The notes: generated by a model from the letters alone, not told the origin. Positions 20,575-62,617 are shown, numbered from the stretch's first letter. The stretch is 64,000 bases of DNA from a virus (IMGVR_UViG_3300013102_000002:110511-174510), one strand, 5' to 3'. Translations and numbers: made by a program.

Positions 20575-20634
20575 AAAACCCGCATAGAATAAGGGTTTTT
20601 TGATACATAAATCATGATAAAAGTGGCATTTCAT
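20575..20634. repeat. composite site: AAAACCC-N11-GGGTTTT palindrome, 21 bp, core repeat
   Basis: AAAACCCGCATAGAATAAGGGTTTTTT ... ATAAAA gtggca TTTCAT. Confidence 0.8.
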
Positions 20635-20655
20635 GAGAAGGGGAGAAATGAGCGT

Positions 20656-20859
20656 ATGACAACAATTTATGTCGTTACATATTGTGCTCCTTGGGCAGAG
20701 TATAATACCCAAAGGTCAAATACGAAGGCGTTTTATGATAAAGAAGAAGCTCAAGAATATATTAACCAAGAACTAAATAAAAAACATGAAAGTGGTCATG
20801 ATGAATATTTTAAAGGTATGAATGGTGATTATGAAATTGATGAAATTGAACTGATTTAA
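20656..20859 (+). CDS. hypothetical protein
   Basis: Start moved to the ATG after GGGAG; the ORF-track start runs through repeat site 20617. Confidence 0.6.
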   Translation: MTTIYVVTYCAPWAEYNTQRSNTKAFYDKEEAQEYINQELNKKHESGHDEYFKGMNGDYEIDEIELI

Positions 20860-21490
20860 TTGATTTAGATAATATTGGAAAGAAGGGATATTAATGAGCG
20901 TAATTACTACATACGATGAAAAAAGAGACAGACTCAGAGACGAACTTACGGATTGTCTAAAATTGGCTAAAGAGTTACTCGATGAGGACATTTGGGGATA
21001 CGATGAGATGAAAGATGATTATGCTATGAATGTTTATACGGCAGTAAAAAAGGCTAGAGATGCTGTGTAAAACACCGAATACATAAATGGGGTGATAAAA
21101 TGAATGAGGTAGAACTAACAGAATTTATAAAGAATAACCTTTCAATTGAGATTGAAGAGGACTACATATCCTATAGCGGGTCTGGCATCAGAGTGAATTT
21201 GGTCTTGAATGGTGAAAGGATTTCCACAGACTATATTGTTACCAACCAAGATTAGAATAATTACAAATATTTGATAAAGAAGAGGAGAGATGTTTATGTT
21301 TATGATGTTTATCTATGTTAATGGTACAGCACATAATAGTATGGGTATTCGCGGAGAATTGGATGAATTATACTTAATTGCAGAACAAGAAACAAAAAAG
21401 TTGTTTAAGACTAATCCACATGCCGAGATTTCAACAAAGATTACAAAATATATTTAAGATAAATCATACATTTCAACATGAAAAAGGAGA

Positions 21491-21841
21491 TTGATAAAAA
21501 TGGATATCAAAAACACTTTTAAGGTTGCTCAAGAAATTGCCGCACTCTCTACTAAATACGAGAATGAAGACATCGGCGATAATGAACAAGCAGAGATTCT
21601 TAACAAGAAATTTATTGATGAACTAGATATGTTGCACAGCAAACTCTTACAATTAAGTATGTACGCCACAGATAAACTACTTAATAAAACAGCAGTCAAC
21701 ACTAAAACTTATGAGCAACTGTCTTCATATTCTAACTTGAGTGTTTATTACATCTATGAAAACGAAGGACTTGCTCTTGTTGAAGATACAGGGATGGGTT
21801 TACATCTTGTTCCGTTGGACATTCTAAGGTTCGAAGATTAA
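21491..21841 (+). CDS. hypothetical protein
   Basis: Bounded by sites 21459 and 21849. Confidence 0.65.
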   Translation: MIKMDIKNTFKVAQEIAALSTKYENEDIGDNEQAEILNKKFIDELDMLHSKLLQLSMYATDKLLNKTAVNTKTYEQLSSYSNLSVYYIYENEGLALVEDTGMGLHLVPLDILRFED

Positions 21842-21892
21842 TATCTTGATTAAATTTTCTTTTGATTAAGAAAAGAAGAAAGGAGGATTCGT

Positions 21893-22090
21893 ATGAAATA
21901 TCTGTTAATCGAAAATTTAATGGGTGGATGCGCCTGGATTCTGAAGGAGTACCTAGATGAATTAGAGCTTCATGAAGTTTACAAGTTTATGAATTCGGGA
22001 ACATTTTCATCTGGAGATATTCAAAAATATATCGTTACTGAAGAAGATTTTAATAGGGAAATTGAGTCTGGAACGTTGCAGTATTTGTGA
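21893..22090 (+). CDS. hypothetical protein
   Basis: AAGGAGG SD; bounded by sites 21849 and 22098. Confidence 0.65.
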   Translation: MKYLLIENLMGGCAWILKEYLDELELHEVYKFMNSGTFSSGDIQKYIVTEEDFNREIESGTLQYL

Positions 22091-22201
22091 GTTGCTTATA
22101 AAATCTTTCTTTCAACAGGAATATTTTACCGCAAGCTACTTTGTGATAAATAAAGTATTATGGTGGGGTAAAATAATCCAATTTGAACGGAGAGATTTAT
22201 T

Positions 22202-22411
22202 ATGGATGATAAGACAGCAAAGATTCAACTGACTACATATAACCAATTTGGGGAATTTAGTTTTTATGTTGATCGTAAACAGATCCAGGATTATTTAGAC
22301 AGTAAGCTATCTAAAATAGAAGTCGATCAGTTTCTTGATATGTGTACGCTTAAGGATACTAGAATGCTATTTGATTGGATTAAAGAGAGTTCAGTAAAGA
22401 AAGTAGAATAG
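22202..22411 (+). CDS. hypothetical protein
   Basis: GGAG SD. Confidence 0.6.
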   Translation: MDDKTAKIQLTTYNQFGEFSFYVDRKQIQDYLDSKLSKIEVDQFLDMCTLKDTRMLFDWIKESSVKKVE

Positions 22412-22443
22412 TTAAAATTGAAATTAAAAAGGATGAGATAATA

Positions 22444-22653
22444 ATGACAGATAGAGTAAAGGGTTTATATGTGGTTCTGGATAATGATTATAGAGATGAT
22501 GATGTTCAAGAAATTATCAATGCAATTAAAATGATTAAAGGAGTTCAAGATGTTACAAATAGTATTGTTGATGGAGACGACTGGATGAATCGTTCGAGAA
22601 TTGGTTTTGAATTTCAAAGTAAAATACTTGATGTGCTGAAAGATTTGAAATAA
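22444..22653 (+). CDS. hypothetical protein
   Basis: ORF with SD. Confidence 0.65.
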   Translation: MTDRVKGLYVVLDNDYRDDDVQEIINAIKMIKGVQDVTNSIVDGDDWMNRSRIGFEFQSKILDVLKDLK

Positions 22654-22690
22654 CTTAAAGAAAACTTGATTTGATTAAAAAATAAAGGAG

Positions 22691-22978
22691 ATGACTAATT
22701 TGATTTCAAAGGAAACATTAGATGAATTATCTGAATTCGAAAAATTTAATGAGTGTTATTATCGACCACTTACTTATAATGGCTATGCTACTCTGGCTTG
22801 TATGCAATGGTTCGATGAATACGATTGTGATGAAAAACGATTCTTCAGAGATGAAAATGATGACAAATATCGCTTTTCAAACAAGGAAGAGGGGATTGAG
22901 TGGCTGTTTAACAATATCAAAGCTGATAAAATAGATCCTGAATATCAAGAATACAATCATGATCATTTTTACAAATAA
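22691..22978 (+). CDS. hypothetical protein
   Basis: Lies between sites 22658 and 23032. Confidence 0.65.
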   Translation: MTNLISKETLDELSEFEKFNECYYRPLTYNGYATLACMQWFDEYDCDEKRFFRDENDDKYRFSNKEEGIEWLFNNIKADKIDPEYQEYNHDHFYK

Positions 22979-22989
22979 TGAAGAAACCA

Positions 22990-23049
22990 AAAACCCTTAT
23001 AAACACTGGACTTTTTAATCACTAAAAGCGCATGAAAGCCCGATTTTAT
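22990..23049. repeat. composite site (accessory palindrome plus core repeat)
   Basis: AAAACCCTTATAAACACTGGA, 21 bp, ATGAAA gcccga TTTTAT. Confidence 0.75.
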
Positions 23050-23066
23050 CAAGAGAGGAGAATATA

Positions 23067-23924
23067 ATGGATACGGAATACTTGGATAAATTAAGCCAAA
23101 TTATTATAAACGAAGGCTTACGTGACACCTGGAAGACCCAAGAAAGACTGAAGGCATTAAATAAAATACACCCATCTGATACTGTTATTTATCACTCGGA
23201 AAACATCAGAGGTAAGTGTATTGTGTATTATGGAAGTATTTCCGACCTAGGAAGCATAGGCACATATGAATTTAAGTTGGGGAAGATTAAGAAAGAAGAA
23301 ACAATTAGTGGCGTTCTGAAATTGAAGGCGTGGGAAAATCAATTCAATAAAACAATACATAAACAGAAGCCGAATCTAGCAATGATTAAGGAAGATATTT
23401 TGAACTGGACTAAAAAAAGCAAGAACGAAAAACACAAAAAACAATTTCTCAACACTCTAAGTGTTCATTATAAATACACTGGACAAATTATTGTTTTCTA
23501 TAAAGAATTTAATGGAGAAGCAAAAAAAATAAAACCTATCTACAAAATGTTTGAAGACGTTAGCGTAGAAGAGCTATATACATACGCAAAAACAAAGAGT
23601 AAAGAATTTTGGAATCGTGAATTTACTGGCACGATCAAATATGTTAAGACCTTTTGGAACAATCAATTAGGAGTGTACTTCCCGGAATTTGAAACAATCA
23701 GATTTAGCGAATACATGAATGGCACACAATCAAAAGAAAAGATATTCGATACATTAATTCACGAACTTGTTCATTGGCATTTGCACACTTCCGGGAGTAA
23801 ATATGCCGATGAAGATTTTGAATTCATCGAAGAATGTTTGCGTGTCGGCTGTGGTTTATCAAATGCTGCTGGAGCGCAAAGAGCTTATAGAGAGTATTTA
23901 AATAGTAAAAATAAGGTTGTGTGA
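23067..23924 (+). CDS. SprT-like zinc metalloprotease domain protein
   Basis: LGVY...I.FS...TLIHELVHW (HExxH). Confidence 0.75.
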   Translation: MDTEYLDKLSQIIINEGLRDTWKTQERLKALNKIHPSDTVIYHSENIRGKCIVYYGSISDLGSIGTYEFKLGKIKKEETISGVLKLKAWENQFNKTIHKQKPNLAMIKEDILNWTKKSKNEKHKKQFLNTLSVHYKYTGQIIVFYKEFNGEAKKIKPIYKMFEDVSVEELYTYAKTKSKEFWNREFTGTIKYVKTFWNNQLGVYFPEFETIRFSEYMNGTQSKEKIFDTLIHELVHWHLHTSGSKYADEDFEFIEECLRVGCGLSNAAGAQRAYREYLNSKNKVV

Positions 23925-23927
23925 GTA

Positions 23928-24206
23928 ATGGGTGTCTGGGGAGAAATGTTATACCAAGTTAGTACAAAAACGTTAAAGATAAGAGCGCTTGAACTCAGAG
24001 ATGAGATTGAAATTAAACCGAAGCGAAAATTGAAGAAAGAGTTAAAGGAAATTCTTGATGAAATTGAATATCAAGAAGGCAGACTGCAATATGCCAATAG
24101 GCCATATAGTTTTCCAACTGCAAAATTACCCATTCCTGGAACGGAGCTAATTGAACATGACTTGGATTGTGATTGTGGATGTTGGCTGAAGATATTTAAT
24201 AAATAA
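23928..24206 (+). CDS. hypothetical protein
   Basis: ORF with CDCGC motif. Confidence 0.55.
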   Translation: MGVWGEMLYQVSTKTLKIRALELRDEIEIKPKRKLKKELKEILDEIEYQEGRLQYANRPYSFPTAKLPIPGTELIEHDLDCDCGCWLKIFNK

Positions 24207-24240
24207 ATATATGTACAATAATAATATAATGTGTTATGAT
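24195..24240 (+). promoter_or_regulatory. sigma-A-like promoter with upstream box
   Basis: TTTAATAAATAAATAT, then TGTACA(24212)-17-TATGAT(24235), extended TG. Confidence 0.7.
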
Positions 24241-24268
24241 GAACTTGTGAGACAATACATATGAGGAG

Positions 24269-25093
24269 ATGGATATATTAATGATTAAAATTGAAGGCAA
24301 GAAGCATGAAGAGTTTATTCAAGAATTATGCGATACATATGGTAAGCTTAAGTTTGATCCAGATAATAGCGGACTAAAAAATGATTACGAAGGTCTTAAG
24401 AAGATTATCTTGGAACGGATGAATTCTTATTCTATTGTAGATAGTGTGGAACTTTCTGAACTACTCACTCTAGAAGATATTATTGTTAATGGAGATCAGA
24501 TTGATCAAGTGTTCAATAAACTTAATGAATATTTAGATGAGCACGTTCATTCACCAAAGAATTTGTGCAGCAAGGATAATGCTGTTTTTATTCTGATGAT
24601 GGATAATTCTGGATCTATGGGTTCGTATGAAAGGTATATGGCAAAAGCAATGGTTACTTGGAGCAGACTCTTACTTGGAGACAGATATAATAAAGTCAAA
24701 ATGGAGTATATTGTTCATAATACAAAAGCCGAAAGCGTAAGCGAGGATGCATTTCTAAATAGTACAGAATCTGGAGGAACGATTGCATCATCTACTTATG
24801 TACGCTGCCTAGAAATAATCAATTCGACTGATTATAAGAATAAAGATATTTATGTTATGCATATATCTGATGGGGATAATCTTACTTCAGATAATTCGAG
24901 AACTGAGAATTATCTATATGACATTTTAAATAAAGTAAATCAAGTTCATTATGTAGAAACAAATCAATATAATAGAAGCAGTACTTTAATGCAAGTCTTT
25001 AAGAAGGTTAATAACAATAAGTTTATTAAGTCAACAATTAAAGATAAGAGCGATGTTCTCAAGGCAATTCTTGATGCATATGTAATCGCTTAG
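24269..25093 (+). CDS. YhbH/YeaH (DUF444)-like vWA-domain protein
   Basis: AVFILMMDNSGSMG.YERYMAK, ESGGTIASS and HISDGDNL.SDN match the YhbH C-terminal vWA domain. Confidence 0.8.
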   Translation: MDILMIKIEGKKHEEFIQELCDTYGKLKFDPDNSGLKNDYEGLKKIILERMNSYSIVDSVELSELLTLEDIIVNGDQIDQVFNKLNEYLDEHVHSPKNLCSKDNAVFILMMDNSGSMGSYERYMAKAMVTWSRLLLGDRYNKVKMEYIVHNTKAESVSEDAFLNSTESGGTIASSTYVRCLEIINSTDYKNKDIYVMHISDGDNLTSDNSRTENYLYDILNKVNQVHYVETNQYNRSSTLMQVFKKVNNNKFIKSTIKDKSDVLKAILDAYVIA

Positions 25094-25143
25094 TAGATTA
25101 CATGAAAGTTCTGTTTTATCAAGAAAAAAGGGAGTGGGTATTT

Positions 25144-25326
25144 GTGGAACATCATGATTGTGAGAGCAATATTTATTATGCTGGGACACCTGTAAATAAG
25201 TGGTTTCTTTTGGTCGAGGGCAGCTCGTGGGATACATATACTGACGGATTTGAAGTAATTAATGTTGAAATCAGTTATTGCCCTCACTGTGGAGCAAAAT
25301 TGGAAACGATTAGTGAAGCTGTATAA
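25144..25326 (+). CDS. small zinc-ribbon protein
   Basis: ISYCPHCG.KL; GTG start after GGGAG; bounded by sites 25102 and 25326. Confidence 0.6.
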   Translation: MEHHDCESNIYYAGTPVNKWFLLVEGSSWDTYTDGFEVINVEISYCPHCGAKLETISEAV

Positions 25327-25379
25327 TGAAATCTCAGTTTTATAAGGAATAAAAATAATTATAATAAGGAGAATTAAAA

Positions 25380-26126
25380 ATGACAATTGAAAAAAGTATT
25401 CAGGATGTAATTCAATCTAAACTAGAAGAGGGCTTAGTTGAGAAGTTGGTGGCTGAACAACTTGAAAAAGGTATTACAAAAGCTCTCGAAAGTTTATTTG
25501 GATCATATGGTGATGTTACAAAGATTCTGGAAAAGCAAATTAAATCGGTTATGGTTCCATTTCTTGAAGCTTATGATTATTCAGAATACATAGTGAAATT
25601 AGATGATGTGCTGGTTGAGGTTCTAAAAAATACAACAATGGAAAATAAATCAATCCTTAATAATTTTAAAGAATTAATGACTATTGATGAAAAAGTAAAG
25701 GAAATTAAACTAACTGATCTATTTACTAAGTGGACAGAATATGTGGCTAAAAATGTTGATACAAGTGATTTGGAAGTTTGCTACGATGACGGTGTAAGTT
25801 ATGAAAATGTCGATGTTCGTTTTAATGTTGATTATAACGAAGATAACAGTTGGAGTAGTTTTGAATACGCCGTGCTAACATTTGAATGTGAACAAGATGA
25901 GGAAATGAATTTTGCAATTAGATTGCATCGATGGAAGAACGGAAGAGATAAGAGTTGGGACATCGACTACGACAAAGTTAACGATTTGAAGTCACTAAAA
26001 CATGTCAACCATTTTGAAATACTTTTGATGAAGCTTAAACAGAGTTTTACAAAATTAATAATTGATGAAGATTGTGATTCTGACGAGGTTCAACCAGAGG
26101 CCGAACCAGAGGCATCATTCAGTTAA
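25380..26126 (+). CDS. hypothetical phage protein
   Basis: 248-aa ORF, AAGGAG SD; bounded by sites 25326 and 26133. Confidence 0.8.
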   Translation: MTIEKSIQDVIQSKLEEGLVEKLVAEQLEKGITKALESLFGSYGDVTKILEKQIKSVMVPFLEAYDYSEYIVKLDDVLVEVLKNTTMENKSILNNFKELMTIDEKVKEIKLTDLFTKWTEYVAKNVDTSDLEVCYDDGVSYENVDVRFNVDYNEDNSWSSFEYAVLTFECEQDEEMNFAIRLHRWKNGRDKSWDIDYDKVNDLKSLKHVNHFEILLMKLKQSFTKLIIDEDCDSDEVQPEAEPEASFS

Positions 26127-26196
26127 GGATTCATGAAACCCTCATTTCATAAGGAATTTAAAAGTAAAAATACATAATTAGTCAAAGGGGATAGAT

Positions 26197-26436
26197 ATGT
26201 TTAACAACAAGCCTAGCTGCTATGAAACAAAAGTTTTTGTTAAAAAGGGTGATTTGTTAATTGCTAATACTTCTGAATTTGATTTAACAGAAGGACGAAT
26301 ATATATGGTAATCAAAAATCAGGGCGAAGGTACATTTGGGGATTGTTTTTATATTGTTAACGACAAAGAAAATACACAAGATTATTCTGGAGAATATTTT
26401 TGCCATTATGAGGGTGAATTAGTCACATTCGACTAA
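26197..26436 (+). CDS. hypothetical protein
   Basis: Lies between sites 26133 and 26499. Confidence 0.6.
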   Translation: MFNNKPSCYETKVFVKKGDLLIANTSEFDLTEGRIYMVIKNQGEGTFGDCFYIVNDKENTQDYSGEYFCHYEGELVTFD

Positions 26437-26441
26437 CATTT

Positions 26442-26488
26442 TGTCTATATATAGTATTTATACTTGAGAATATATCTATATATAGACA
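26442..26488. promoter_or_regulatory. tandem NrdR-box-like palindromes (CTATATATAG twice, 31 bp apart)
   Basis: TGTCTATATATAGTAT and TATCTATATATAGACA. Confidence 0.45.
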
Positions 26489-26912
26489 TGAAAACCACAT
26501 GAAAGAGGTATTTTATTAAAACATGAAAAGGAGTGGATTGATTTGAAAATTATGAATACAGGAAGTCTGGTTTTCGAAGAAATCGGAGCAAACATTTATG
26601 TAATGGGAGCTAACCGATATGGGAAAATAGATAATGCGGTATATTCAAAAGAAGATTTTAAAGACCTAGAAAAAATGGGATATATGATTGAAATTAGAAA
26701 GTAAAAAATAAAAATAATAGGAGAGGTGAAATATAATGCATCAAGAAAGAGTTCAGAAATTTCTACAAAAACTTGATCAACTTACTGAAGATTTTGGTAT
26801 TTATATCGATCTTGATTATAAGAGCAATGTTAAATTAAAAGATTCTGAAACAGATGAAGTGCTCGGAAATGACTTTTGTTTTGCAGAGGAACTTGGTTAT
26901 GAATGTTATTGA

Positions 26913-27224
26913 ATGGAGCGATACATTGTGTCGATAGTTTATTTACCCGATAATTCACTTGAGATTATTACCGACAACCACGATCTAGTCAAACTTATCA
27001 AGCAGCATATGGGATATGAGACCGCTCAACTCGTAGAGGAATTGTCCGAAGCAATCACGGCAGAAGAAGATTACGAAGAAAGACTTGAAGATAATCAATT
27101 CGCTTTTGATGTGCTCGATGATCATATCGACTTTCTATTGAATGAACTGGAAAGATTAGAGATAAGTGAATCAATAACAAATGTCGTGAAGAAGATGAAA
27201 AGAGTTGTGGAGAGTCAAATGTAA
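26913..27224 (+). CDS. hypothetical protein
   Basis: ORF just upstream of the replication genes. Confidence 0.6.
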   Translation: MERYIVSIVYLPDNSLEIITDNHDLVKLIKQHMGYETAQLVEELSEAITAEEDYEERLEDNQFAFDVLDDHIDFLLNELERLEISESITNVVKKMKRVVESQM

Positions 27225-27236
27225 GGAGGTGATAAA

Positions 27237-27836
27237 TTGGCTGAACGATTGTTGAAATGTCCTATCTGTGAGCAATATGGTCATAAAGATAAGATGACCA
27301 GAGAGACAGATAAAAAGTATTATCACAATGAATACTGTCACGATAGATATTTACGCGACAAAGCATTCAAACAGAAGGAAAGGGAAGAAATGGATAGTCT
27401 TATTAATACAATAGTGAGGCTCCATAAACTTCAAAGCGTAGCTACATTTCCACGAACATTCTATCCATTCATCCAGGAACTACGCAATGACTCTGTGTTG
27501 TTCGGTAAGATCGAACGAAGATACAAAGAAGGTCTTACATATAAGACGATTGAGGATACATATCTGTACTGTGCTGAAAAGATAGAATGGGCAAAAGGCA
27601 ACAAGGAATTCAAGAACGTAATGAGTGAGTTGAAATATTGTTTCGCTATTGTTAAGAATAATATCGAGAATTATTTCAGGGATGGTAAGAAAATATCTAA
27701 GCAAAAAGCAGAGACTGAAATATTGACTAGTCATGTTGAATCAATGAGAGATGTGAACAAAGTTATTATCGCAGCTCAAAATAAAGCAGTCCAAAATAAT
27801 GAAGATAAAATAGATATAACATCGTTGTTCGACTAA
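27237..27836 (+). CDS. putative helicase loader / replication protein (SPbeta YorH-like position)
   Basis: N-terminal KCPIC...YYH..YC zinc motif; directly upstream of dnaB. Confidence 0.55.
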   Translation: MAERLLKCPICEQYGHKDKMTRETDKKYYHNEYCHDRYLRDKAFKQKEREEMDSLINTIVRLHKLQSVATFPRTFYPFIQELRNDSVLFGKIERRYKEGLTYKTIEDTYLYCAEKIEWAKGNKEFKNVMSELKYCFAIVKNNIENYFRDGKKISKQKAETEILTSHVESMRDVNKVIIAAQNKAVQNNEDKIDITSLFD

Positions 27837-27850
27837 AGGAAGGTGATATT

Positions 27851-29383
27851 ATTTCTGAGGAATTGTCTAAGATTGAAGATTTGGGATCAGAGATGTTTAT
27901 CATTGGAAGCATGTATCTCAACCCAGACCTGTTTTTGGATTATGGAGAACTAATTAAGTCCAAGTATGATTTCAATCAACCATCAAATAAGTTTTTGTAC
28001 GACTCCATAATGGATTTGTATAGTCAACACGCAGGAACAGAAATTAATCAAATTAAAATAAATACATATATGAATTCAGATCCAGAGAGAAAAGCAAAAT
28101 ACGAATATTTAAAGGGGTATTCAATCATTGACCGCCTAACAAGAGTGGTTGATTTGGATGATTTCCCTCTATATTATGAAAAACTTAAGAAGTATTCACT
28201 GCTTCGTGAGTTTGAAAGAAAAGGGTTCCCCGTACAAAAGTTAATGGGTAGAAAAGACTTTGACAAAATCGGGACAGAAGAGATTATCAAAGGTATGGAG
28301 TACCAAATTAATACGATTGGAACTGTAATTGGTGGTGTTCAAGACAGCATTATTCTTGGTCACAATATGCCGGAGAAGATTGATGAGTGGAAACTAACTC
28401 CTGATGTTGGTATTCCCATTCCATTCCAAATCATCAATTCACTTCTTCGTGGACTAAGAGGTAAAAAGTTTAATCTATTCGGGATGCATAGTGGATGTGG
28501 GAAAAGTCGTACCACTAGCAAACTTGCTTGTTACCTTGGAATTAAGTTGGGTATTCCGGTGTTGGTACTTGTGAATGAACAGGACGAGGCGGAATGGTTG
28601 GGAATGCAGATTAGTTGCGTTCTGAATAATCCTGAGTTTGGATTCGATGTTCAGATGAAACGCCGAGGAATTGACCTGATTGACGAAACAAAGATTGTTA
28701 CCGGAACACTCAATGAGCAAGAAGAGGAGATTGTTAAAGAGGCAGCGCAATACATAAAGAAAAATAGTAAGATTTATTTTCTTGAATTGAATAAATATGA
28801 TGAAAACACTTTAAAAAGACAGATTAAACGACATAAACTTAGAAATTGTCAATTGATTATATATGACACAATGAAAGCACCAGATCATGACTGGATGACA
28901 TTTGTTAAAACTGCCGACATGCTTAAGGAAGTCGCAAGCACAGAAGATATTCCAGTTTGGTCTACATTCCAATTAACGGACGATAGTTTGTTCAATGACA
29001 TGCTAACTAGTCAGGCCATTGCTAACGGCAAACACATTAAACACGTTGCCGATGCACTTATGATGGCAAAACCAATTTCTCGTGACCAATATGATAAATT
29101 TGTTATTTACAATCCAAATGACCCCTTTGTTGGAGAATCCACCACTCAACTTGAAATGCATATAAATTATTATATGGTAGTAATTGACAAAAATAGAGGA
29201 GGTAAAGACAAAGATATTCTCTGTTTTGAAGTTGATAAAGGCAAAAACTTGTGGATTGAACGAGGATATTTAGTTCCATCTCAAGGAGAGAAGGAATTGA
29301 AAGCACTCAAGAAAGAAAACAAGAAACTCAAAACAGAGCAAGAAGTGGTTAAGTTGAGAAAGGCTTTAAACAAAGAAGAATAA
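27851..29383 (+). CDS. dnaB: DnaB-like replicative helicase (SPbeta YorI-like); probable ATT start
   Basis: Walker A GMHSGCGKS, NEQ, Walker B IIYDTMK, TFQL, IDKNRGG. Confidence 0.9.
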   Translation: MSEELSKIEDLGSEMFIIGSMYLNPDLFLDYGELIKSKYDFNQPSNKFLYDSIMDLYSQHAGTEINQIKINTYMNSDPERKAKYEYLKGYSIIDRLTRVVDLDDFPLYYEKLKKYSLLREFERKGFPVQKLMGRKDFDKIGTEEIIKGMEYQINTIGTVIGGVQDSIILGHNMPEKIDEWKLTPDVGIPIPFQIINSLLRGLRGKKFNLFGMHSGCGKSRTTSKLACYLGIKLGIPVLVLVNEQDEAEWLGMQISCVLNNPEFGFDVQMKRRGIDLIDETKIVTGTLNEQEEEIVKEAAQYIKKNSKIYFLELNKYDENTLKRQIKRHKLRNCQLIIYDTMKAPDHDWMTFVKTADMLKEVASTEDIPVWSTFQLTDDSLFNDMLTSQAIANGKHIKHVADALMMAKPISRDQYDKFVIYNPNDPFVGESTTQLEMHINYYMVVIDKNRGGKDKDILCFEVDKGKNLWIERGYLVPSQGEKELKALKKENKKLKTEQEVVKLRKALNKEE

Positions 29384-29401
29384 TCCAAGAGGTGATATAA
29401 A

Positions 29402-30439
29402 ATTGATGCTCAAACTTTAAAAGAAAACATAATAAGAGACAATAAAGTTGCTGATATTTTAACATCTCTTGGATGTCACATTAATGAACGAATGTCAGAT
29501 CATACAGAGATACGTTCTACGAGACCGGGGGGAGACAATCCCTCCAGTCTTCAAGTTTTTACCGATTCATTATTAGTGAACTGTTACACAGAAACAATCC
29601 CAAAGTTGTCAAATGGGCATCCAGATATAATTACACTCGTACAACATTATAAAGAAATGTCATTTTCAAAAGCGCTGTACTATATTTGTGAGGTATGCGG
29701 CTACAGTTATTACTCTGACTACAAACCTGTAAAAGAAGAAGTTGATCCGTGCCTTGCATTTTTAGATTTAATTGAACCTAAATCAGAACATCACGATGAA
29801 GTACCATTGAGAAAAATAGATGAACAAGTATTAAACATGTATCTTCCAATACCCAATCAATGGTTCCTGGATGAAGGAATAAGCGTAGATGTTCAGAGAC
29901 TTTTCGAAGTTGGATATTCAATAAATGATAATTGTATAACTATTCCGATTAGAGACGAACTTGGGTCATTGGTTGGAGTAAAGGGAAGAACAACACTGGA
30001 TCATAAAGCGCTAAAAACATCGAAGTATTGGTATCTCATTCCTACCCCCAAGAGCCAGATTCTATATGGATTAGATAAGACCTACGATCATATCAAGGAT
30101 TCTGGTAGGGTAATCGTGTTTGAGGCTGAGAAGAGTGTACAGAAGGCGTGGAGTTGTGGAATCAAGAATTCTGTGAGCATTGGCGGTCATGAACTAAGCG
30201 AGACTCAAATATTGAAACTGGAACGCATGGGAGTTGAGGTTGTTCTTGCATTTGACAACAACATAACCAGCCAAGAAATTAAGGAAGAGGCTGCTAAATT
30301 TGTTGTCAGAGATAGCGTAAGATGTCTGTTTGCTCACAAGAACAAGGGAATTATGGGAGAGAAGGATGCGCCGATTGATCTGGGGGCAGAGTTTTTCATG
30401 AAATTGATGAACGAGGATAAATATAAGATACCAGTTTAA
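29402..30439 (+). CDS. dnaG: DNA primase (TOPRIM; SPbeta YorJ-like); probable ATT start
   Basis: ITIPIRDELG.LVG.KGR, LYGL, VFEAEKS and LAFDN; frame open back to ATT 29402 behind a GAGGTG SD. Confidence 0.9.
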   Translation: MDAQTLKENIIRDNKVADILTSLGCHINERMSDHTEIRSTRPGGDNPSSLQVFTDSLLVNCYTETIPKLSNGHPDIITLVQHYKEMSFSKALYYICEVCGYSYYSDYKPVKEEVDPCLAFLDLIEPKSEHHDEVPLRKIDEQVLNMYLPIPNQWFLDEGISVDVQRLFEVGYSINDNCITIPIRDELGSLVGVKGRTTLDHKALKTSKYWYLIPTPKSQILYGLDKTYDHIKDSGRVIVFEAEKSVQKAWSCGIKNSVSIGGHELSETQILKLERMGVEVVLAFDNNITSQEIKEEAAKFVVRDSVRCLFAHKNKGIMGEKDAPIDLGAEFFMKLMNEDKYKIPV

Positions 30440-30469
30440 ATCAAATATAGGTTTTATCAAAAGAAAGAG

Positions 30470-31246
30470 GTGAGGATAATATTTAATCAGTTTAAAGTTA
30501 AGGTACAAGATGCAATTGATGAATTAACCGCTCAGATTAATTTTATTGAGGCCGCAACTAAGTCTCCAGTTCTGCTATTTACAACGTCTGACAAAGTACT
30601 CAAGAACGATAGAGCGTCACTATTCATTACTCTAGGTTATGATAATGGTAAGTTTCGTGGGTATATGGCTAATTTAATGAGTTCATATTTTTCAAATAAC
30701 TGTCCATATAATTTAACCATCAGACCACGCTCAAAATCACAAACATCAATTTTTGCAATTTATCATGAAGATATTGAGATTGCACAGTTTAATATTTTTG
30801 AACAATGGTATGGGATCAGAGACAAACCGAGTTTAGAAGATGATATTTTAAAAGAACATCAAAGGCTTGAAAATGAAAAAAATAAAGAGATTAGTTTAGT
30901 GAATGAGCGCATTCAAAAATGGGAGGGAATTTTAACCCATCCATATAAATACGTGTACAATTTTTACCTCAAAAATAAAAAACTTAGAGCTAAATCTATT
31001 TTTCAATTTATTGATGATTCGATACACCTCTTGTTCAATAAGAACTTGATAGACAAGATTAAAAACAGATTGAAACAAGAGAAAGATAAGTTGAAGGAAA
31101 TCAACGATAGGTATGCTAGGCACTCATTTGATCCAGAAGAACTTATTGCATCAAACAAGGAAAAAGAAGCGTATATAAAATTCTGCGTGGACTTCTTTGA
31201 ACTACACCAATATTCATTACAACAAAAACAACATAAACTATATTAA
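30470..31246 (+). CDS. hypothetical protein
   Basis: 258-aa ORF after repeat site 30440. Confidence 0.7.
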   Translation: MRIIFNQFKVKVQDAIDELTAQINFIEAATKSPVLLFTTSDKVLKNDRASLFITLGYDNGKFRGYMANLMSSYFSNNCPYNLTIRPRSKSQTSIFAIYHEDIEIAQFNIFEQWYGIRDKPSLEDDILKEHQRLENEKNKEISLVNERIQKWEGILTHPYKYVYNFYLKNKKLRAKSIFQFIDDSIHLLFNKNLIDKIKNRLKQEKDKLKEINDRYARHSFDPEELIASNKEKEAYIKFCVDFFELHQYSLQQKQHKLY

Positions 31247-31270
31247 AAAAGGAGGCATAAGCCTCCCATA
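31245..31270. terminator. bidirectional terminator between convergent genes
   Basis: AAAAAA GGAGGC-ATAA-GCCTCC. Confidence 0.7.
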
Positions 31271-31432
31271 TTAGTACTCTAGGATTGTAAACTCACCCAG
31301 TATTCTTGCGTTCTGGGCTGCTATTTGAGTATCAAAAGTTTCCACTGAAAAGTGGAGATCGCTACTACGACAAATCTTCCATTCGTTATTTTCCTTACTT
31401 ACATCTTCAACAAAGTACTCAAAGGGTTGCAT
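31271..31432 (-). CDS. small hypothetical protein (53 aa, MQPFEYFVEDVSK...)
   Basis: GGAGGTG SD on the minus strand at 31441-31447; ends at a bidirectional hairpin. Confidence 0.65.
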   Translation of the reverse strand: MQPFEYFVEDVSKENNEWKICRSSDLHFSVETFDTQIAAQNARILGEFTILEY

Positions 31433-31555
31433 AAAATTTTCACCTCCTAGTTGTATGACTTTACTATAAATTATAGTTTAAAAAGTAAATAGTTATACCT
31501 GTGCTAGAACCGCGCAGTTGCTGCGTGAGTTTAATTTAAGGAGACGATTAAACTA

Positions 31556-31978
31556 ATGAATCTTTACGAAATTCAATTTGAACATTTTTCACAAAAAGAC
31601 AGTCAAAGAGGAATTTTAGTCTATCTTGCTGCTAAGTCAGATGAACATGTTTATGAATGGTTGAAGTCTAATCCAGACCTGGGAAATAATAATTATATTT
31701 TTACAACTTATCAAGACAATGAACGAGATGGGGAAATTTTTGATATTTATGCTGATGACTGGTCGATTATTGGAACAGAATCATTCAAGGAACGAATCAT
31801 TAGATTGTCTGGAGAAATAAACGATGATGAAGTTGAACTTACTGATCTTTATTATGGTAAAACTCTTTATGGGTGGAAATTGGTCAAAGAAGATGTCAAG
31901 CCAGATGTTTTTGCAATCGTTGAGGAATGCGGCATTAATCTGATTAATGGACTGGATATCGAAATTAAAAACCCTTGA
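31556..31978 (+). CDS. hypothetical protein
   Basis: AAGGAG SD. Confidence 0.7.
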   Translation: MNLYEIQFEHFSQKDSQRGILVYLAAKSDEHVYEWLKSNPDLGNNNYIFTTYQDNERDGEIFDIYADDWSIIGTESFKERIIRLSGEINDDEVELTDLYYGKTLYGWKLVKEDVKPDVFAIVEECGINLINGLDIEIKNP

Positions 31979-32027
31979 TAAATAAGGGTTTTTTGCACAT
32001 CATTTCATCATAAAATAAAGATTTTAC
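31968..32027. repeat. composite site (accessory palindrome plus core repeat)
   Basis: AAAACCCTTGATAAATAAGGG, 21 bp, ATAAAA taaaga TTTTAC. Confidence 0.8.
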
Positions 32028-32047
32028 ACAATCTTCAGCCGGGAATA

Positions 32048-32106
32048 TTTAATAAATAAATATATATACAAAAACCATTGACATTCATTTAATAAATAAA
32101 TATAAT
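32048..32106 (+). promoter_or_regulatory. consensus sigma-A promoter with two TTTAATAAATAAATAT boxes
   Basis: TTGACA(32078)-17-TATAAT(32101); boxes at 32048 and 32088. Confidence 0.85.
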
Positions 32107-32128
32107 AAGACTATGACATGAGAGAGGG

Positions 32129-32383
32129 ATGATTATCTTGTCTATTACTGAAATCAAAGCATCTGATTTAAAGCTTACCGAAGACGAAAATGCAGCAAGG
32201 TACATTGAAATATGGAGCAATAAATGGGGGAGTAAATTAACAATTGGAGGACTGTATGAGATAAAGAGATCATACGGAAGCCCTCAAATATATGGCGATG
32301 AAGGGGAAATGTATATTATAGATGATGAAGGCAAAGACGCTTACGGATTTCAAATGTTGTGTGATGTTAACTACTATGAATAA
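32129..32383 (+). CDS. hypothetical protein
   Basis: First gene after consensus promoter 32078. Confidence 0.6.
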   Translation: MIILSITEIKASDLKLTEDENAARYIEIWSNKWGSKLTIGGLYEIKRSYGSPQIYGDEGEMYIIDDEGKDAYGFQMLCDVNYYE

Positions 32384-32522
32384 TACATAAATATATATAG
32401 ATAAATTACACCAGTGATCGGACTAGAAAGTGTGGATTGTTATGTTGGTAATAAAGCGGAGTTGCATTGTGATGATGTGACTCCAAATGAAAATATAAAA
32501 TACATATGAAGGGAAGTAAGAA

Positions 32523-33188
32523 ATGAAAAAGAACAATAAGGCGTTAACGAACGAATCGGCCTATAGAGGATTCAAGGTAAGAGGTATTGCAAACAAGAAC
32601 GAACTTATAACAGCAATGAGAGCCATGATACCAAATGCATTAAAAGTTAATGACATCGTATTTGTTTGCATCGGAACAGACAGATCTACAGGAGACTCAT
32701 TGGGGCCATTGGTTGGAAGCTACTTAAAAGACATGGGATACGCAAATGTATATGGAACAATTGATAATCCAGTACACGCAGTTAATCTTGAAGAAACAAT
32801 GAAAAGTATACCGAAGAATAAGATTGTTATTGCAGTAGATGCCTCTCTTGGAGGGTCTGTGGATGTTGGAAATATATCGTTGATCAAAGGAAGTCTCAAG
32901 CCTGGAGCTGGTGTTGGGAAAGATTTGATAGAAGTAGGAGATTTCTCTCTATGTGGGGTTGTAAATGTAGGTGGATTTATGGAACATTTTGTTTTGCAAA
33001 ATACGAGGCTATCCTTGGTTATCAAGTTGGCGAAAGATATTGTTTCAGGTATAACCAATACATTTCCACTTAAAGAAGAGAGTAAGCGAAAGAGTAACGA
33101 GAAATTTGTAAGTAGGGCAGATGATATTAGAACGATTACCAAGCTAAAGAAAAAAGGATTAAATGTTGCATATCTTCAAAATACATAA
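32523..33188 (+). CDS. yyaC: spore protease YyaC family protein
   Basis: CIGTDRSTGDSLGPLVG, GTIDNPVHA.NL, IAVDASLG, LKPGAGV.K.L..VGD and LQNTRL motifs. Confidence 0.9.
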   Translation: MKKNNKALTNESAYRGFKVRGIANKNELITAMRAMIPNALKVNDIVFVCIGTDRSTGDSLGPLVGSYLKDMGYANVYGTIDNPVHAVNLEETMKSIPKNKIVIAVDASLGGSVDVGNISLIKGSLKPGAGVGKDLIEVGDFSLCGVVNVGGFMEHFVLQNTRLSLVIKLAKDIVSGITNTFPLKEESKRKSNEKFVSRADDIRTITKLKKKGLNVAYLQNT

Positions 33189-33237
33189 TACATATGATTA
33201 GATGAGAGATGGATTTCGTAAAGAATGGAGACTATAA

Positions 33238-33540
33238 ATGTCACTAAAAATTGAAAATGAAACGGTTTATGTGATTTATATAAACGGCATTCCATATGAG
33301 GGAGATGGAAGAAAACTTGTATATACTTCTGTGGGTGCTGCAAACGGAGTAATTACAAAAGAAGCGAAACGTGAGGCTGAGCACAGATATACAACAACAA
33401 GAAATTATCTGACGGACATAGACTGGTACGAACTAGGTTGGAATTCAAGAGAATATTTGATTGATAGAGTTAAAGACGAATTTACTATTGTTGAATATGG
33501 ACCAAAGGAGAATAAAAATGCAAATACTAATGGGCAGTAA
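33238..33540 (+). CDS. hypothetical protein
   Basis: SD after site 33202. Confidence 0.65.
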   Translation: MSLKIENETVYVIYINGIPYEGDGRKLVYTSVGAANGVITKEAKREAEHRYTTTRNYLTDIDWYELGWNSREYLIDRVKDEFTIVEYGPKENKNANTNGQ

Positions 33541-33697
33541 TCGTAGAGTTGACTTTTACGGAAACGCTAAAGACGGTGTGCATGTTGAAATGGTCAACGA
33601 CAAGGGTGAAACGTTTGTGTCGAGAAGATTAAGTGAAGAGCAACGATTGAATCTAATTGAGACCCTGACGCGAATGGATAATGGCAAGGCAGTTTAA
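33518..33697 (+). CDS. hypothetical protein
   Basis: AAGGAG SD. Confidence 0.55.
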   Translation: MQILMGSNRRVDFYGNAKDGVHVEMVNDKGETFVSRRLSEEQRLNLIETLTRMDNGKAV

Positions 33698-34135
33698 AAC
33701 TGTGGTTAAAATTGGAGATGATACAATGAAAACTTACACTTCTGAAGAAATCATTCAAAAACTCAAAGATCAAATATCTTCAACAAACCTTTATGACCGT
33801 GACAGCTTCAATGAAGGATATCGCGAAGCACTAAGAGACATGATTCAAGTGTTTAAATCGATATAAAATTTGTGTTTTATAAGAAAAGGAGATGTGAAAA
33901 ATGGGTGAAGCTAATCGAAGAAAATTACTTAATGATTATCCAGAGATAAACGAGAAGCAAAAGCAAAAGAAGATGTCTAAAAGAGATATCATAAACGAGA
34001 TAAGCACTAGTAACCCTATGCTTACTGTAGCAGGATTGGTTGGAGGATTTGGCGGCCATATTTGAGAATTGATGATATAAGAGTTTTATAGTGAACAGTA
34101 GTCAAATTATACGAAATAAGAAGAGGAGATAAAAA

Positions 34136-34528: not shown

Positions 34529-34569
34529 TCGCAAAATAATAGATTTATCAAAATTTAGGAGGAATATAA

Positions 34570-35118: not shown

Positions 35119-35165
35119 AATATTTGATAAATACATACTTTTATAAAGAAATGAGGGGGATAATA

Positions 35166-38610: not shown

Positions 38611-38621
38611 TTAGTAAATAT

Positions 38622-38821: not shown

Positions 38822-38881
38822 AAAAACCGCGAAAACATTGAGTTTTTTGAAGGCAATAATCTGATGAAATTGAGTTTTTAT
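38822..38881. repeat. composite site (accessory palindrome plus core repeat)
   Basis: AAAAACCGCGAAAACATTGAG, 21 bp, ATGAAA ttgagt TTTTAT. Confidence 0.75.
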
Positions 38882-41995: not shown

Positions 41996-42202
41996 ATGAT
42001 TGATATATTAAAGGCAAAAATTGAATCATTACAAGAAGAAATAACTGAAATCAACTCACAAATAGAAAGTGATTTTGATCCTGATGAATGGTCTGGAGGC
42101 AACTTCGACGATTGCTACAATCTAGGATTTGAACATGGAGAGAAATTTGGTCGAATGGATGCTTATAAAGAAATGCTAAAAATTCTAGAAAGTACGAATT
42201 GA
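41996..42202 (+). CDS. hypothetical protein
   Basis: GGAGG SD; SGGNFDDCY..G motif. Confidence 0.65.
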   Translation: MIDILKAKIESLQEEITEINSQIESDFDPDEWSGGNFDDCYNLGFEHGEKFGRMDAYKEMLKILESTN

Positions 42203-42261
42203 AAAACGTTGATTTATAAGGGTTTTTTAGACCGAAAAACCTCATGAAAGTCAAATTTCAT
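42202..42261. repeat. composite site (accessory palindrome plus core repeat)
   Basis: AAAAACGTTGATTTATAAGGG, 21 bp, ATGAAA gtcaaa TTTCAT. Confidence 0.8.
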
Positions 42262-54203: not shown

Positions 54204-54706
54204 CCTACCCATTAACAATCATTGTAGCTATGGATAAAAATGGTCTTATTGGTTCTAATAACAAGCTTCCCTGGCACATTTCAGCAGACTTAAATTTCTT
54301 CAAATCAACGACTCAATACAATAATGTAGTTATGGGTAGATCAACGTTTGAATCAATTGGCAAACCACTTCCCAAACGAACAAATATCATCCTAACTTCA
54401 CAAAAAGATTACCCTGTTCCACCTGATGGATATGTTTATGATCATATAGATGATGTATTGGTTCATTCATTTGTCGATGAACTCAGATCGACCTACATTA
54501 TTGGCGGGTCATCAATTTATTCACAATTCCTTCCTCATGTTGAGAATATGATTATTACTCACATTGATGCAGAGTTTGAAGGAGATACTCATTTCCCTGA
54601 ATACGATAAATCAGAATGGGAATGTGTCCATGAAAGATATATTCCCAAAGGTCAAGATACTGATTACAACTTAACAACAACACGTTACCGAAGATTTAAT
54701 AAATAA
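54200..54706 (+). CDS. dfrA: dihydrofolate reductase
   Basis: [41 protein letters not shown]. Confidence 0.95.
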
Positions 54707-54738
54707 ATATATACAAACATAATTAAGTATGTTATGAT
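54695..54738 (+). promoter_or_regulatory. sigma-A-like promoter with upstream box
   Basis: TATACA(54710)-17-TATGAT(54733), extended TG. Confidence 0.7.
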
Positions 54739-54795
54739 GAGTACAGGTTAAGAAACACGCCTGTACTTTATTTTATTTCAAGGGAGACGATACAT

Positions 54796-56342: not shown

Positions 56343-56353
56343 TTCTCCATAAA

Positions 56354-56412
56354 AAAACCCTTTAAAATCAACGTTATTTTAAGCAAAAAACTTCATGAAA
56401 GGCGAGTTTTAT
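56354..56412. repeat. composite site (accessory palindrome plus core repeat)
   Basis: AAAACCCTTTAAAATCAACGT, 20 bp, ATGAAA ggcgag TTTTAT. Confidence 0.75.
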
Positions 56413-60516: not shown

Positions 60517-60533
60517 AAGGGGGTTGAAATATA

Positions 60534-60743
60534 ATGAGTTACGAAGAAGGAACGCATTTAAAATCGCACTATAAAATTCAATATCGCAAAAGAACATCTT
60601 CTGGTGATTATGAGTCTAAATATATGGATTGGAATAATTACGATGAAGTTGTTACTCGATTAAGAACATTGCGAAACAATCCAAAGATAGAAAGTATCGT
60701 GATTTTAAAGAGGAGTATATACGATGTGACCGAAGAATTCTGA
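60534..60743 (+). CDS. hypothetical protein
   Basis: Stop overlaps site 60743. Confidence 0.6.
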   Translation: MSYEEGTHLKSHYKIQYRKRTSSGDYESKYMDWNNYDEVVTRLRTLRNNPKIESIVILKRSIYDVTEEF

Positions 60744-60785
60744 CGAAATGAGACTTTCATTAAAACATTTAAAGGAGAGAATATA

Positions 60786-61178
60786 ATGAATATTGTAGAA
60801 CTAGTGAATAAGATGAGTAATGATGAGATAGCATACTCTAATGAATTAAATGAGCGATTGATCAAAAAAGACTATGGCCTGTACTTATACCATGGACCGA
60901 ACCAAGTAAATGATACGATAGTTGACTGTAATATGAACTATTTGTTGACAGAAGATTGGGAAATTGCGTATGAACTCGATTACTCAAAAGAGATGACATT
61001 TCCCCTTTATTATAACTATCGTGGAACTTCGTGCATCAGTCTATTTATGAAGATGGATGACTCGTGCCTTGGAGGAATGGCTCAATTATATAGTAGCTTT
61101 AATGAGATGATGTTTGAGGGAAGTGTAGACGAGTGCTTTAGTTTTATTGGTGAGCTATTGAAAGGTAGTCACGCATAG
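60786..61178 (+). CDS. hypothetical protein
   Basis: Between sites 60743 and 61189. Confidence 0.7.
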   Translation: MNIVELVNKMSNDEIAYSNELNERLIKKDYGLYLYHGPNQVNDTIVDCNMNYLLTEDWEIAYELDYSKEMTFPLYYNYRGTSCISLFMKMDDSCLGGMAQLYSSFNEMMFEGSVDECFSFIGELLKGSHA

Positions 61179-61225
61179 TTAAAATTTGATAAAAACTGAA
61201 TTTCATGAAGAAAGGAATATCATAT

Positions 61226-61573
61226 ATGAGTAAAGTAATTGAGTTTAAACCCAAATCTAAAAGAGATTTATATGTGGTTGATGGATATCATGTCATCTTA
61301 GCAAGTTCTAGCGAAGAAGCACTAGCTTACGCACAAGTTGACGATAACACAGATGATTTAATGGATGTTGTAAAATTGGATGATCAATTAGAAGTCCCAG
61401 TGATTCATTCTGGGAAAGTGGAAATCATTTTATGGGATCGAGAACCAAGAGAGATTGAACGCTTAAGTTTTATGTTAAAGATTAGGGATTTTATTGATAG
61501 AGATTTAAAAAGGTTTATAACTCCATCGCGAATCGACATCATCGATGACAATGCAATAAAACCTAAAAAGTAA
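61226..61573 (+). CDS. hypothetical protein
   Basis: SD after site 61189. Confidence 0.65.
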   Translation: MSKVIEFKPKSKRDLYVVDGYHVILASSSEEALAYAQVDDNTDDLMDVVKLDDQLEVPVIHSGKVEIILWDREPREIERLSFMLKIRDFIDRDLKRFITPSRIDIIDDNAIKPKK

Positions 61574-61598
61574 AAACGATTTACAAGGAGATGTAGAT

Positions 61599-61778
61599 AT
61601 TAAAATACTATTTTTCAATAAAGAGAAAGAAGAAGAAATGGAAATTGTCCGTATTTCAGATGATGAATTTACGCTGTGTATAACAAATTCTTCGGGAGAT
61701 CAATGTTTTATTAGTGATATTAACTGCGATGATTTATTAAATATTAAAGATACCATTGAGGAACTATTGATTAAATAA
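61599..61778 (+). CDS. hypothetical protein (59 aa, probable ATT start)
   Basis: AAGGAG SD, then an open frame IKILFFNKEK... Confidence 0.5.
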   Translation: MKILFFNKEKEEEMEIVRISDDEFTLCITNSSGDQCFISDINCDDLLNIKDTIEELLIK

Positions 61779-61978
61779 AAGGAGTCTATTATGAATATTG
61801 GACAACAAGTAAACTACGAGATTCAGCGAGAAGCAGCTAAATTTTGTGAAGATAAATGCCCTTATAAAATTTCAAACAGTTCATATGAAGAAGGTTACGA
61901 ATTGCCATGTACTATAGGTAAATGTTATGTCATCGAATTCAAAAGACATTTAGTTAGATAAAGAAGAGAGGAGTTCAA

Positions 61979-62545
61979 ATGTCAGTATACTATACAAGCG
62001 ACACCCATTTTCATCATAAGAATGTCATCCAGTTATCAAATAGACCGTTCGAATCAATTGAGGAAATGAATGAGATGTTCATTGATAACTGGAACAAGAC
62101 AGTTAATCGCAATGACACGGTTTATCATCTTGGGGATTTCGCTTTAGGTGGAACAACAAAATGGGAGGATATCCTCACTAGGTTAAAAGGGAAGATTCAT
62201 CTTGTGTTAGGAAATCACGATGATAAGAAAGTAGTAAATAAAGTGGCTCATCATTTTGCATCTATTGATCTTATGGTTGAGAAGAAAATTGATAAGCAGC
62301 ATTTATTCTTATTCCATTACCCAATTGATATTGGCCTTACACCTAATGCTTACAGTATTCATGGACACATTCATGAGCGACCATCTAGGTTAGTCAATCA
62401 AATTAATGTTGGTGTAGATAGCGATTTTACCAGAGAGAAAGTCGGATTCGGGAACTTGATTCCTGAAGAGATGATTTTGGATGAGTTGAAAGTTAGAAAG
62501 TTGGAAGTATTGAGATTGAGGGAAGAAAGTAGACAAAACTCTTAA
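61979..62545 (+). CDS. calcineurin-like metallophosphoesterase
   Basis: SDTHF.H, HLGDF, GNHD, HYP and HGHIH motifs. Confidence 0.92.
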   Translation: MSVYYTSDTHFHHKNVIQLSNRPFESIEEMNEMFIDNWNKTVNRNDTVYHLGDFALGGTTKWEDILTRLKGKIHLVLGNHDDKKVVNKVAHHFASIDLMVEKKIDKQHLFLFHYPIDIGLTPNAYSIHGHIHERPSRLVNQINVGVDSDFTREKVGFGNLIPEEMILDELKVRKLEVLRLREESRQNS

Positions 62546-62557
62546 AATGGATTTTGA

Positions 62558-62617
62558 AATAACCGCATAAACATTGGGTTTCTTGAACGCTAAAGGTTAA
62601 TAAAACTTTACTTTCAC
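62558..62617. repeat. composite site (accessory palindrome plus core repeat)
   Basis: AATAACCGCATAAACATTGGG, 21 bp, ATAAAA ctttac TTTCAC. Confidence 0.75.

Follow-up and report, generated by a model that had tools for sequence, protein, structure and literature searches.

The stretch of DNA considered here, referred to below as the window, comprises 64,000 nucleotides and represents the final 64 kb of a complete virus record of 174,510 bp (IMGVR_UViG_3300013102_000002); coordinates preceded by 'genome' refer to the full record, and all others to the window. The record is that of a large SPbeta-like Paenibacillus phage, and the window has a G+C content of 34%. Between positions 20,575 and 62,617, the window carries seven composite sites, in each of which an inverted repeat of the form ATRAAA-N6-TTTYAY (the core) is preceded at a nearly constant distance by a second palindrome. 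Here, we describe this two-part arrangement, its behaviour in related phages and the explanations that may account for it. In the following list of the composite sites, RNA folding energies are given for the plus and minus strands in this order; G000 denotes the present genome, and G001-G005 the related complete phages with which it was compared.

20575..20601, unstranded: second palindrome copy 1, A4-CCC-N11-GGG-T6; fold -9.7 (+) / -6.9 (-) kcal/mol
20617..20634, unstranded: core ATAAAA-GTGGCA-TTTCAT, starting 21 bp after the GGG of copy 1
22989..23016, unstranded: second palindrome copy 2, with a CCC/GGA mispair; fold -0.3/-2.3 kcal/mol; near-identical in contig L015 and similar in G005
23032..23049, unstranded: core with centre GCCCGA; homology to L015 stops at 23050
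31967..31994, unstranded: second palindrome copy 3, well paired (CCCTT/AAGGG); fold -10.5/-10.2 kcal/mol
32010..32027, unstranded: core with centre TAAAGA; unit kept in G005 though the upstream gene is replaced
38822..38848, unstranded: second palindrome copy 4, with an ACC/GAG mispair; fold -2.1/-1.8 kcal/mol
38864..38881, unstranded: core with centre TTGAGT; G005 has a different centre and right arm
42202..42228, unstranded: second palindrome copy 5, with an ACG/GGG mispair; fold -5.8/-0.2 kcal/mol
42244..42261, unstranded: core with centre GTCAAA, 21 bp from copy 5
56351..56380, unstranded: second palindrome copy 6, no fold (0.0/-2.5 kcal/mol); interior inverted relative to copy 5
56395..56412, unstranded: core with centre GGCGAG; spacing 20 bp
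62557..62584, unstranded: second palindrome copy 7, A and T runs interrupted; fold -3.2/-2.8 kcal/mol
62600..62617, unstranded: core with centre CTTTAC; homology to G005 (L028) begins at 62619

All seven composites were found at the positions reported in an earlier note on this DNA. The right triplet's last base and the core are 21 bp apart at six of them (cores 20617, 23032, 32010, 38864, 42244 and 62600) and 20 bp apart at 56395, where the palindrome is, as the note had stated, close to the reverse complement of the copy at 42202. A profile search of the whole genome identified 12 members of the palindrome family, 11 of which have a core at a centre-to-centre distance of 37-39 bp; the binomial p value of this coupling is 2e-30 against the whole genome and 2e-19 when both elements are restricted to one tenth of it. 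Outside the window, the late minus-strand block contributes two further composites (genome 17042 and 39585), and the palindrome stands on the core's other side at the cores located at genome 93573 and 97514. The remaining member, at genome 58766, has no core; the impression that the palindrome never occurs without a core thus holds for the window, in which no such copy was found, but not for the genome. The distance of 37-39 bp is also kept in approximately 13 of 18 further members from five related complete phages, other loci and a relative with 57% helicase identity, and this check of homologous genomes bears out the conservation of the spacing. Measured edge to edge, 17 distinct composites have spacings of 20-22 bp (mean 20.9, standard deviation 0.54). 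Most core-to-start distances in these intergenic regions are 17-27 bp, with 101 bp at 32010, and the upstream open reading frame (ORF) ends anywhere from 12 nt inside the palindrome to 11 nt before it; these distances are far more variable than the palindrome-core spacing. Approximately 10-20% of the cores are composite and the remainder, such as the core at 25102, are core-only, in agreement with the two site classes that had been proposed. The orientation of the palindrome interior relative to the core is mixed (4 versus 7 in this genome), and the copy number differs between phages, with 11-12 copies in G000, approximately 9-10 in G005 and 2-4 in G001-G004.

There are 37 strict matches to the core in the genome, and 46 under a relaxed definition compared with 2.9 expected, nearly all of which are located after a stop codon and ahead of the next ribosome-binding site. 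The core is built around a 6-bp centre, and symmetric outer positions extend its arms to approximately 11 bp in this genome. Covariation between the arms is absent across 183 distinct cores. Because the arms vary independently, the core is best described as two DNA half-sites, and its interpretation as an RNA or DNA hairpin was ruled out, since mirrored positions do not covary.

The complete module is approximately 66 bp long and consists of the stem-loop formed by the second palindrome, a 15-nt linker and the core. In ten orthologous pairs, sequence identity is 0.80 for the element, 0.97 for the T-run, 0.77 for the linker, 0.93 for the core arms and 0.95 for the centre, and it is 0.55 in the flank just upstream and 0.46 in the flank just downstream. 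The segment from the A-run to the right core arm is a conserved island, while the neighbouring genes are replaced. Read case by case, homology breaks at core edges at 23050, 25326, 33866, 38881, 58754 and 62619, and at the outer edge of the palindrome, with the upstream gene replaced and the unit kept, at 31965 and 56350. One break, at 38864, falls exactly between the left arm and the centre: the closest relative, G005, shares the gene, palindrome, linker and left arm and differs in the centre and right arm. Replacement of the palindrome's left arm in G005 accounts for a break within the element at 56351. A global comparison of BLAST segment ends with cores, in which 4 of 114 ends were near cores, was uninformative because segments also break within diverged genes. 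One phage has the palindrome at a given core address (centres TTTGTG and GAGGTA) and another lacks it there, the neighbouring gene always being different; in the phages compared, no clean filled/empty alleles with the same flanks and no target-site duplication were found.

The linkers (21 distinct sequences of 15 nt) have a mean pairwise identity of 0.386, compared with 0.273 in shuffled sequences (standard deviation 0.008, maximum 0.298), and the value for the 15 nt preceding core-only sites is 0.315. As the linkers resemble each other more than shuffled sequences do, the palindrome, linker and arm share ancestry, and this shared ancestry explains much of the constant spacing, which had previously been taken as a sign of two bound proteins. 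The module is a unit of descent and exchange, with 11 occurrences in this genome in either orientation. Its linker varies in length by one base only, and some constraint on this length is likely, although not proven.

The stem-loop family follows a plan of A-run, CC(C), a loop of 11 nt in most copies, GG(G) and T-run. With each copy oriented, a 26-copy alignment gives the consensus A6-CCC-ATTGTTTAT-AAGGG-T6, in which the loop can be aligned across all copies, and the identity between element copies is 59%. All 12 copies in the genome have T-runs; their folds range from -12.1 to 0.0 kcal/mol, and 5 of the 12 reach -5.8 kcal/mol or stronger on one strand. The stem AAAACCCTT-N7-AAGGGTTTT is present in at least 107 places in viral contigs, where approximately two matches would be expected by chance according to our own estimate (18 fixed bases, approximately 1e11 bases scanned). 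In those contigs, it often closes a 5-nt A/T loop with G-C; 105 of the matches have no nearby core, and some lie directly after tRNA genes, as host terminators do. Judged by its sequence, the well-paired stem appears to be a widespread terminator type, present in more than 100 unrelated viral contigs. No known RNA families were found in the window.

The genome also contains approximately 30 early promoter modules, in each of which a box (TTTAATRAATAAATATAT) is followed by -35 and -10 hexamers and by a leader (AATACATATG) that precedes the ribosome-binding site. Those in the window are located as follows.

24202, 32055, 32095, 38335, 44665, 54702 and 58804: promoter modules, with approximately 25 more elsewhere in the genome

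The palindrome lies 3' of a gene end and before the next unit at the seven window copies, at genome 97546 and at genome 58766, and the palindromes at genome 17042 and 39585 are inside the late operon. Hairpins stand ahead of promoter boxes at genome 97546 (-12.1 kcal/mol), 31967 (-10.5 kcal/mol) and genome 58766, the first two being the most stable of the family. The copy at 31967..31994 overlaps the stop codon of the upstream ORF, which ends at 31978, and is followed by the promoter boxes at 32055 and 32095. In four phages (L171, L150, L151 and L153), the core-less member (genome 58766-58792) precedes an HU/IHF-family gene by 87-130 bp and stands between a late gene and the promoter box of the HU-family gene; the SPbeta record likewise annotates a stem-loop between yonO and the HU-like gene yonN.

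The best explanation that we can offer, tentatively and with a probability of about 0.45, is that the composite is a repeated cassette-boundary module, similar to PeSLs, in which a stem-loop of terminator type and a core are inherited and exchanged as a unit. PeSLs (promoter-early stem-loops) are composite promoter-terminator motifs of T4-type phages (PMC2839356, PMC4122927); in the nt-1 phage pair, they consist of a stem-loop (A3-4 G3-loop-C3 T3-4) joined to a second conserved motif and are located at indel and replacement junctions (PMC4122927). The present composites share with PeSLs a stem-loop of A-run, triplet, loop, triplet and T-run at a set distance from a second conserved motif, as well as their repeated occurrence among small variable genes, at the points where related phages differ by insertion, deletion or replacement. 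Unlike in PeSLs, however, the partner is an inverted repeat around a variable 6-bp centre rather than a sigma-70-type promoter, the real promoter modules of the phage stand elsewhere, the copies have diverged much further (59% identity in the element, 39% in the linker) and the stem-loop may lie on either side of its partner. If the PeSL-like reading is correct, the second palindromes would be homologous stem-loops of the bidirectional intrinsic-terminator type that are fused to a gene-boundary core. The copies at operon ends (31967, genome 97546 and genome 58766) would still terminate transcription, and those within operons, or in the late operon read by a YonO-like polymerase, may have become less stable as hairpins, since terminating transcription at these places would do harm. 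The unit would represent the standard 3' end or linker of gene cassettes, recombination at which would swap the neighbours, as has been suggested for PeSLs, and an extra constraint would hold the linker length to ±1 bp. What stays in these mosaic SPbeta-like phages while the genes on both sides change is a two-part intergenic unit rather than a lone palindrome; what is new here is the partner at a constant distance and the finding that it forms a unit with the core. If the unit is indeed a standard cassette end, the PeSL idea, which comes from T4-type phages of Gram-negative hosts, would be extended to temperate phages that infect Firmicutes.

The terminator component of this reading has to be weighed with care. 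The palindromes resemble the bidirectional Rho-independent terminators of low-G+C bacteria and phages in having an A-run, a G+C clamp and a T-run right after a stop codon, and in sharing an identical stem with the viral contigs mentioned above. They are unlike them in the 11-nt loop of most copies, the instability of half of the copies, the lack of compensation, the conservation of the loop and the strict coupling to another element whatever the direction of transcription. Several results count against a cassette end of terminator type. In six of the 12 copies, neither strand folds more strongly than -3.2 kcal/mol, and a consensus terminator scan of positions 20001-40000 called none of the four copies there. 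Across 26 copies and 11 stem pairs, compensatory changes are absent: paired cells make up 72.9%, compared with 74.7% in shuffles, and only one stem cell is altered on both sides. In more than half of the copies, there is no pairing at the outermost C-G position or at the two innermost positions. Deep orthologues keep the loop and even mispaired stems (element identity 0.80 versus 0.67 for the linker, Fisher p 0.03), as exemplified by the ACG/GGG mispair of the copy at 42202, which is retained in the G004 orthologue; from these comparisons, the conservation of loop and mispairs suggests that selection acts on the sequence and not on an RNA fold. The element at genome 93573 separates the core from the ribosome-binding site of the gene that follows, so that a working terminator would silence this gene. 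Most promoter boxes are preceded by canonical G+C-rich terminators, not by members of the palindrome family. Finally, a standard deviation of 0.54 bp with linkers only 39% alike is tighter than descent alone predicts. The earlier note had regarded a terminator as a weak interpretation, and this view is upheld in part: mispairs, the lack of compensation, the barely folding half of the copies and a varying order relative to transcription speak for it, whereas the frequent use of the same stem as a terminator elsewhere speaks against it.

The main alternative, although a rather unlikely one, is that the composite is a bipartite DNA site, in which the core is bound by a dimeric protein, for which an XerC/D-type recombinase is the candidate, and the palindrome is a protein-bound accessory or architectural element 38 ± 1 bp away, with an HU/IHF-family protein as the candidate binder. 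The phage encodes a single XerC/D-type tyrosine recombinase (genome 63010-64077) with the Pfam domains Phage_integrase and SAM-like N, which appears to be intact, its R, K, HxxR, H and Y residues being ordered as expected, and an HU/IHF-family protein (genome 58359-58679); a PDB sequence search with the recombinase as query returned zero matches. In known systems, IHF acts beside the crossover in lambda attP, and Hbsu does so in Sin and beta recombinase sites. The composites resemble cer/psi, attI (DR1/DR2), lambda attP (IHF sites), the Tn4430 IRS and res in combining a core with inverted arms and a 6-bp centre with a second element at a fixed distance, in forming two site classes and in occurring in a genome that encodes both a tyrosine recombinase and an HU-family protein. 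The accessory elements of those sites have a defined side and orientation and are not generic terminators, whereas the present element varies in side and interior orientation (4 versus 7) and also stands alone. A bipartite site is consistent with the fixed distance on either side of a symmetric core in approximately 24 of 30 family members from six phages, with independently varying, half-site-like arms, with the loop and mispairs conserved without compensatory change and with the single homology break exactly at the boundary of left arm and centre; autoregulation would fit the location of the sole core-less copy upstream of the HU-family gene. It is harder to reconcile with an identical stem that is common as a core-less terminator elsewhere, the absence of the element from approximately 80-90% of the cores, the 2-4 copies in close relatives as opposed to 11 here and the shared descent of the linkers. 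In addition, the separation corresponds to approximately 3.6 turns centre to centre, which is not a whole number; the two helical turns from which binding on the same DNA face had been deduced are an edge distance, and that deduction is not supported. The crossover-plus-accessory interpretation of the earlier note thus retains its recombinase-type core, its candidate recombinase and the fixed spacing, but the variable side and orientation and the core-less occurrence of the stem do not conform to it. If the palindrome were an accessory site after all, it would provide the strongest sequence-level argument so far for the cores as true site-specific recombination sites. Quite unlikely, in our view, is a phage-encoded cassette-exchange system in which the composites serve as full sites and the 6-bp centre as the address; the recombinase would act at the cores, the A-tract/T-tract element 38 bp away, with a bend imposed by the HU/IHF-family protein of the phage, would license or direct the reaction, and core-only sites would be weaker or dependent partners.

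Two further mechanisms deserve consideration. In a conditional terminator coupled to a roadblock, a core-bound protein would stall RNA polymerase approximately 14 bp upstream, at the end of the T-run, and the weak hairpin would release the transcript only while the core is occupied, for example in a lysogen. RNA polymerase stalls 13-15 bp before a bound protein in roadblock studies, and a 6-nt T-run plus 15 nt places a polymerase stalled at this distance from the core at the natural release point; the tolerance of weak hairpins would be explained, and the order of hairpin, core and gene is found in most copies. Mycobacteriophage repressor 'stoperators' provide a precedent for intergenic elongation blocks (PMC9283540). 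However, the order relative to transcription is not constant, as six composites, including the one with the most stable hairpin (genome 97546), have the core ahead of the hairpin, the three or four copies without a sense-strand hairpin do not fit, and the conservation of the loop is left unexplained. As a general cause of the spacing, roadblock-assisted termination was therefore rejected in spite of its fitting geometry, and we regard a conditional terminator of this type as very unlikely. The least probable of the explanations weighed here, and a highly doubtful one, is a miniature palindromic mobile element of approximately 28 bp that was inserted at a fixed distance from cores via a core-bound protein and multiplied in this lineage. 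The higher copy numbers in G000 and G005 than in G001-G004, the occurrence of the same core address with and without the element, and loop flips, which are typical of palindromic elements, would be in keeping with such mobility. It is contradicted by the lack of a clean filled/empty pair and of a target-site duplication, and the descent that the linker shares with the element argues against the linker as pre-existing target DNA.

Repeated intergenic elements are already known from SPbeta-like phages. SPBRE, the operator of SroF (MrpR, YopR), is intergenic and bound by a recombinase-fold protein; it lies within sigma-A promoters, where an SroF monomer reads a 24-bp box (PMC10516654; bioRxiv 10.1101/2025.11.27.690993). 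The present elements are similar in being repeated and intergenic in the same phage group, and a homologue of the MrpR/SroF-type master repressor is encoded here (genome 102473-103468). The likely counterpart of SPBRE, however, is the TTTAATRAATAAATATAT box with its approximately 30 copies and not the core or the palindrome, and the TTTAATRAATAAATATAT module is probably the SroF/MrpR operator-promoter. An identity of the core or palindrome with SPBRE itself was ruled out, as SPBRE has the sequence ATACAAAWAATATGTAT within sigma-A promoters (ten MrpR-bound SPbeta promoters). The core was also rejected as a sigma-A promoter, no sigma-A-like hexamers at a spacing of 16-18 bp being found by eye or by a consensus scan. 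No sigma-factor gene (sigma region-2) was found in the phage, which counts against the core as a promoter for a phage sigma factor. Our literature searches returned papers on SPBRE and PeSLs, and none that describes such cores or composites in SPbeta-like phages.

Several observations on the distribution of the two elements were also made. SPbeta (NC_001884; L001-L003) has 16 core-like sites, mostly ATAAAA-N6-TTTTAT, compared with 2.4 expected, and many of them are intergenic; the core system may be general to SPbeta-like phages. In another group of viral contigs (L050, L104, L110, L115, L127, L135, L066 and L109), a similar stem-loop is followed by ATAAAA-N6-TTTTAT 21-22 bp past the GGG, and cores are sparse there (2-3 per 10 kb). 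When viral contigs were scanned for the pattern with a variable gap, the matches listed were mostly due to chance, and gaps of 16-17 formed no more than a weak peak among them. Two cores (26440-26516 and genome 109853-109905) are each flanked, over a short linker, by a TATATA-rich element of the GTCTATATATAG type, and these partner elements are in opposite orientations at the two cores.

Regarding the promoter modules, the leader contains UACAU, which is the cleavage motif of Bacillus subtilis MazF. At 54702-54790, a promoter box and -10 hexamer are followed directly by a stable hairpin (GTACAGG..CCTGTAC) and a T-run, which could be a very short RNA or an attenuator. Canonical G+C-rich terminators at genome 78641 and 86682 (L008) directly abut promoter boxes; this arrangement, within the 63-100 kb region, is a second type of composite, made of terminator and promoter, and resembles PeSLs more closely.

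In the phage genome, the late block (15-63 kb) is encoded by the minus strand and the long early block by the plus strand. The genome encodes DNA polymerase III alpha, a DnaB-type helicase, RecJ, class I and class III ribonucleotide reductases and a serine integrase. The helicase has kin at 87-91% amino-acid identity in Paenibacillus genomes and viral contigs, and SPbeta is a remote relative (approximately 23% helicase identity); a megablast search of the window against phage records gave zero matches. Elsewhere in the window, a TnpB gene (IS605 OrfB / Cas12f-like) is located at 8295-9473, with a very stable 14-bp hairpin (7972-8008; -19 kcal/mol) approximately 290 bp upstream, and the gene for the anaerobic ribonucleotide reductase NrdD (45908-49216) is split by an intein with a LAGLIDADG homing-endonuclease domain.

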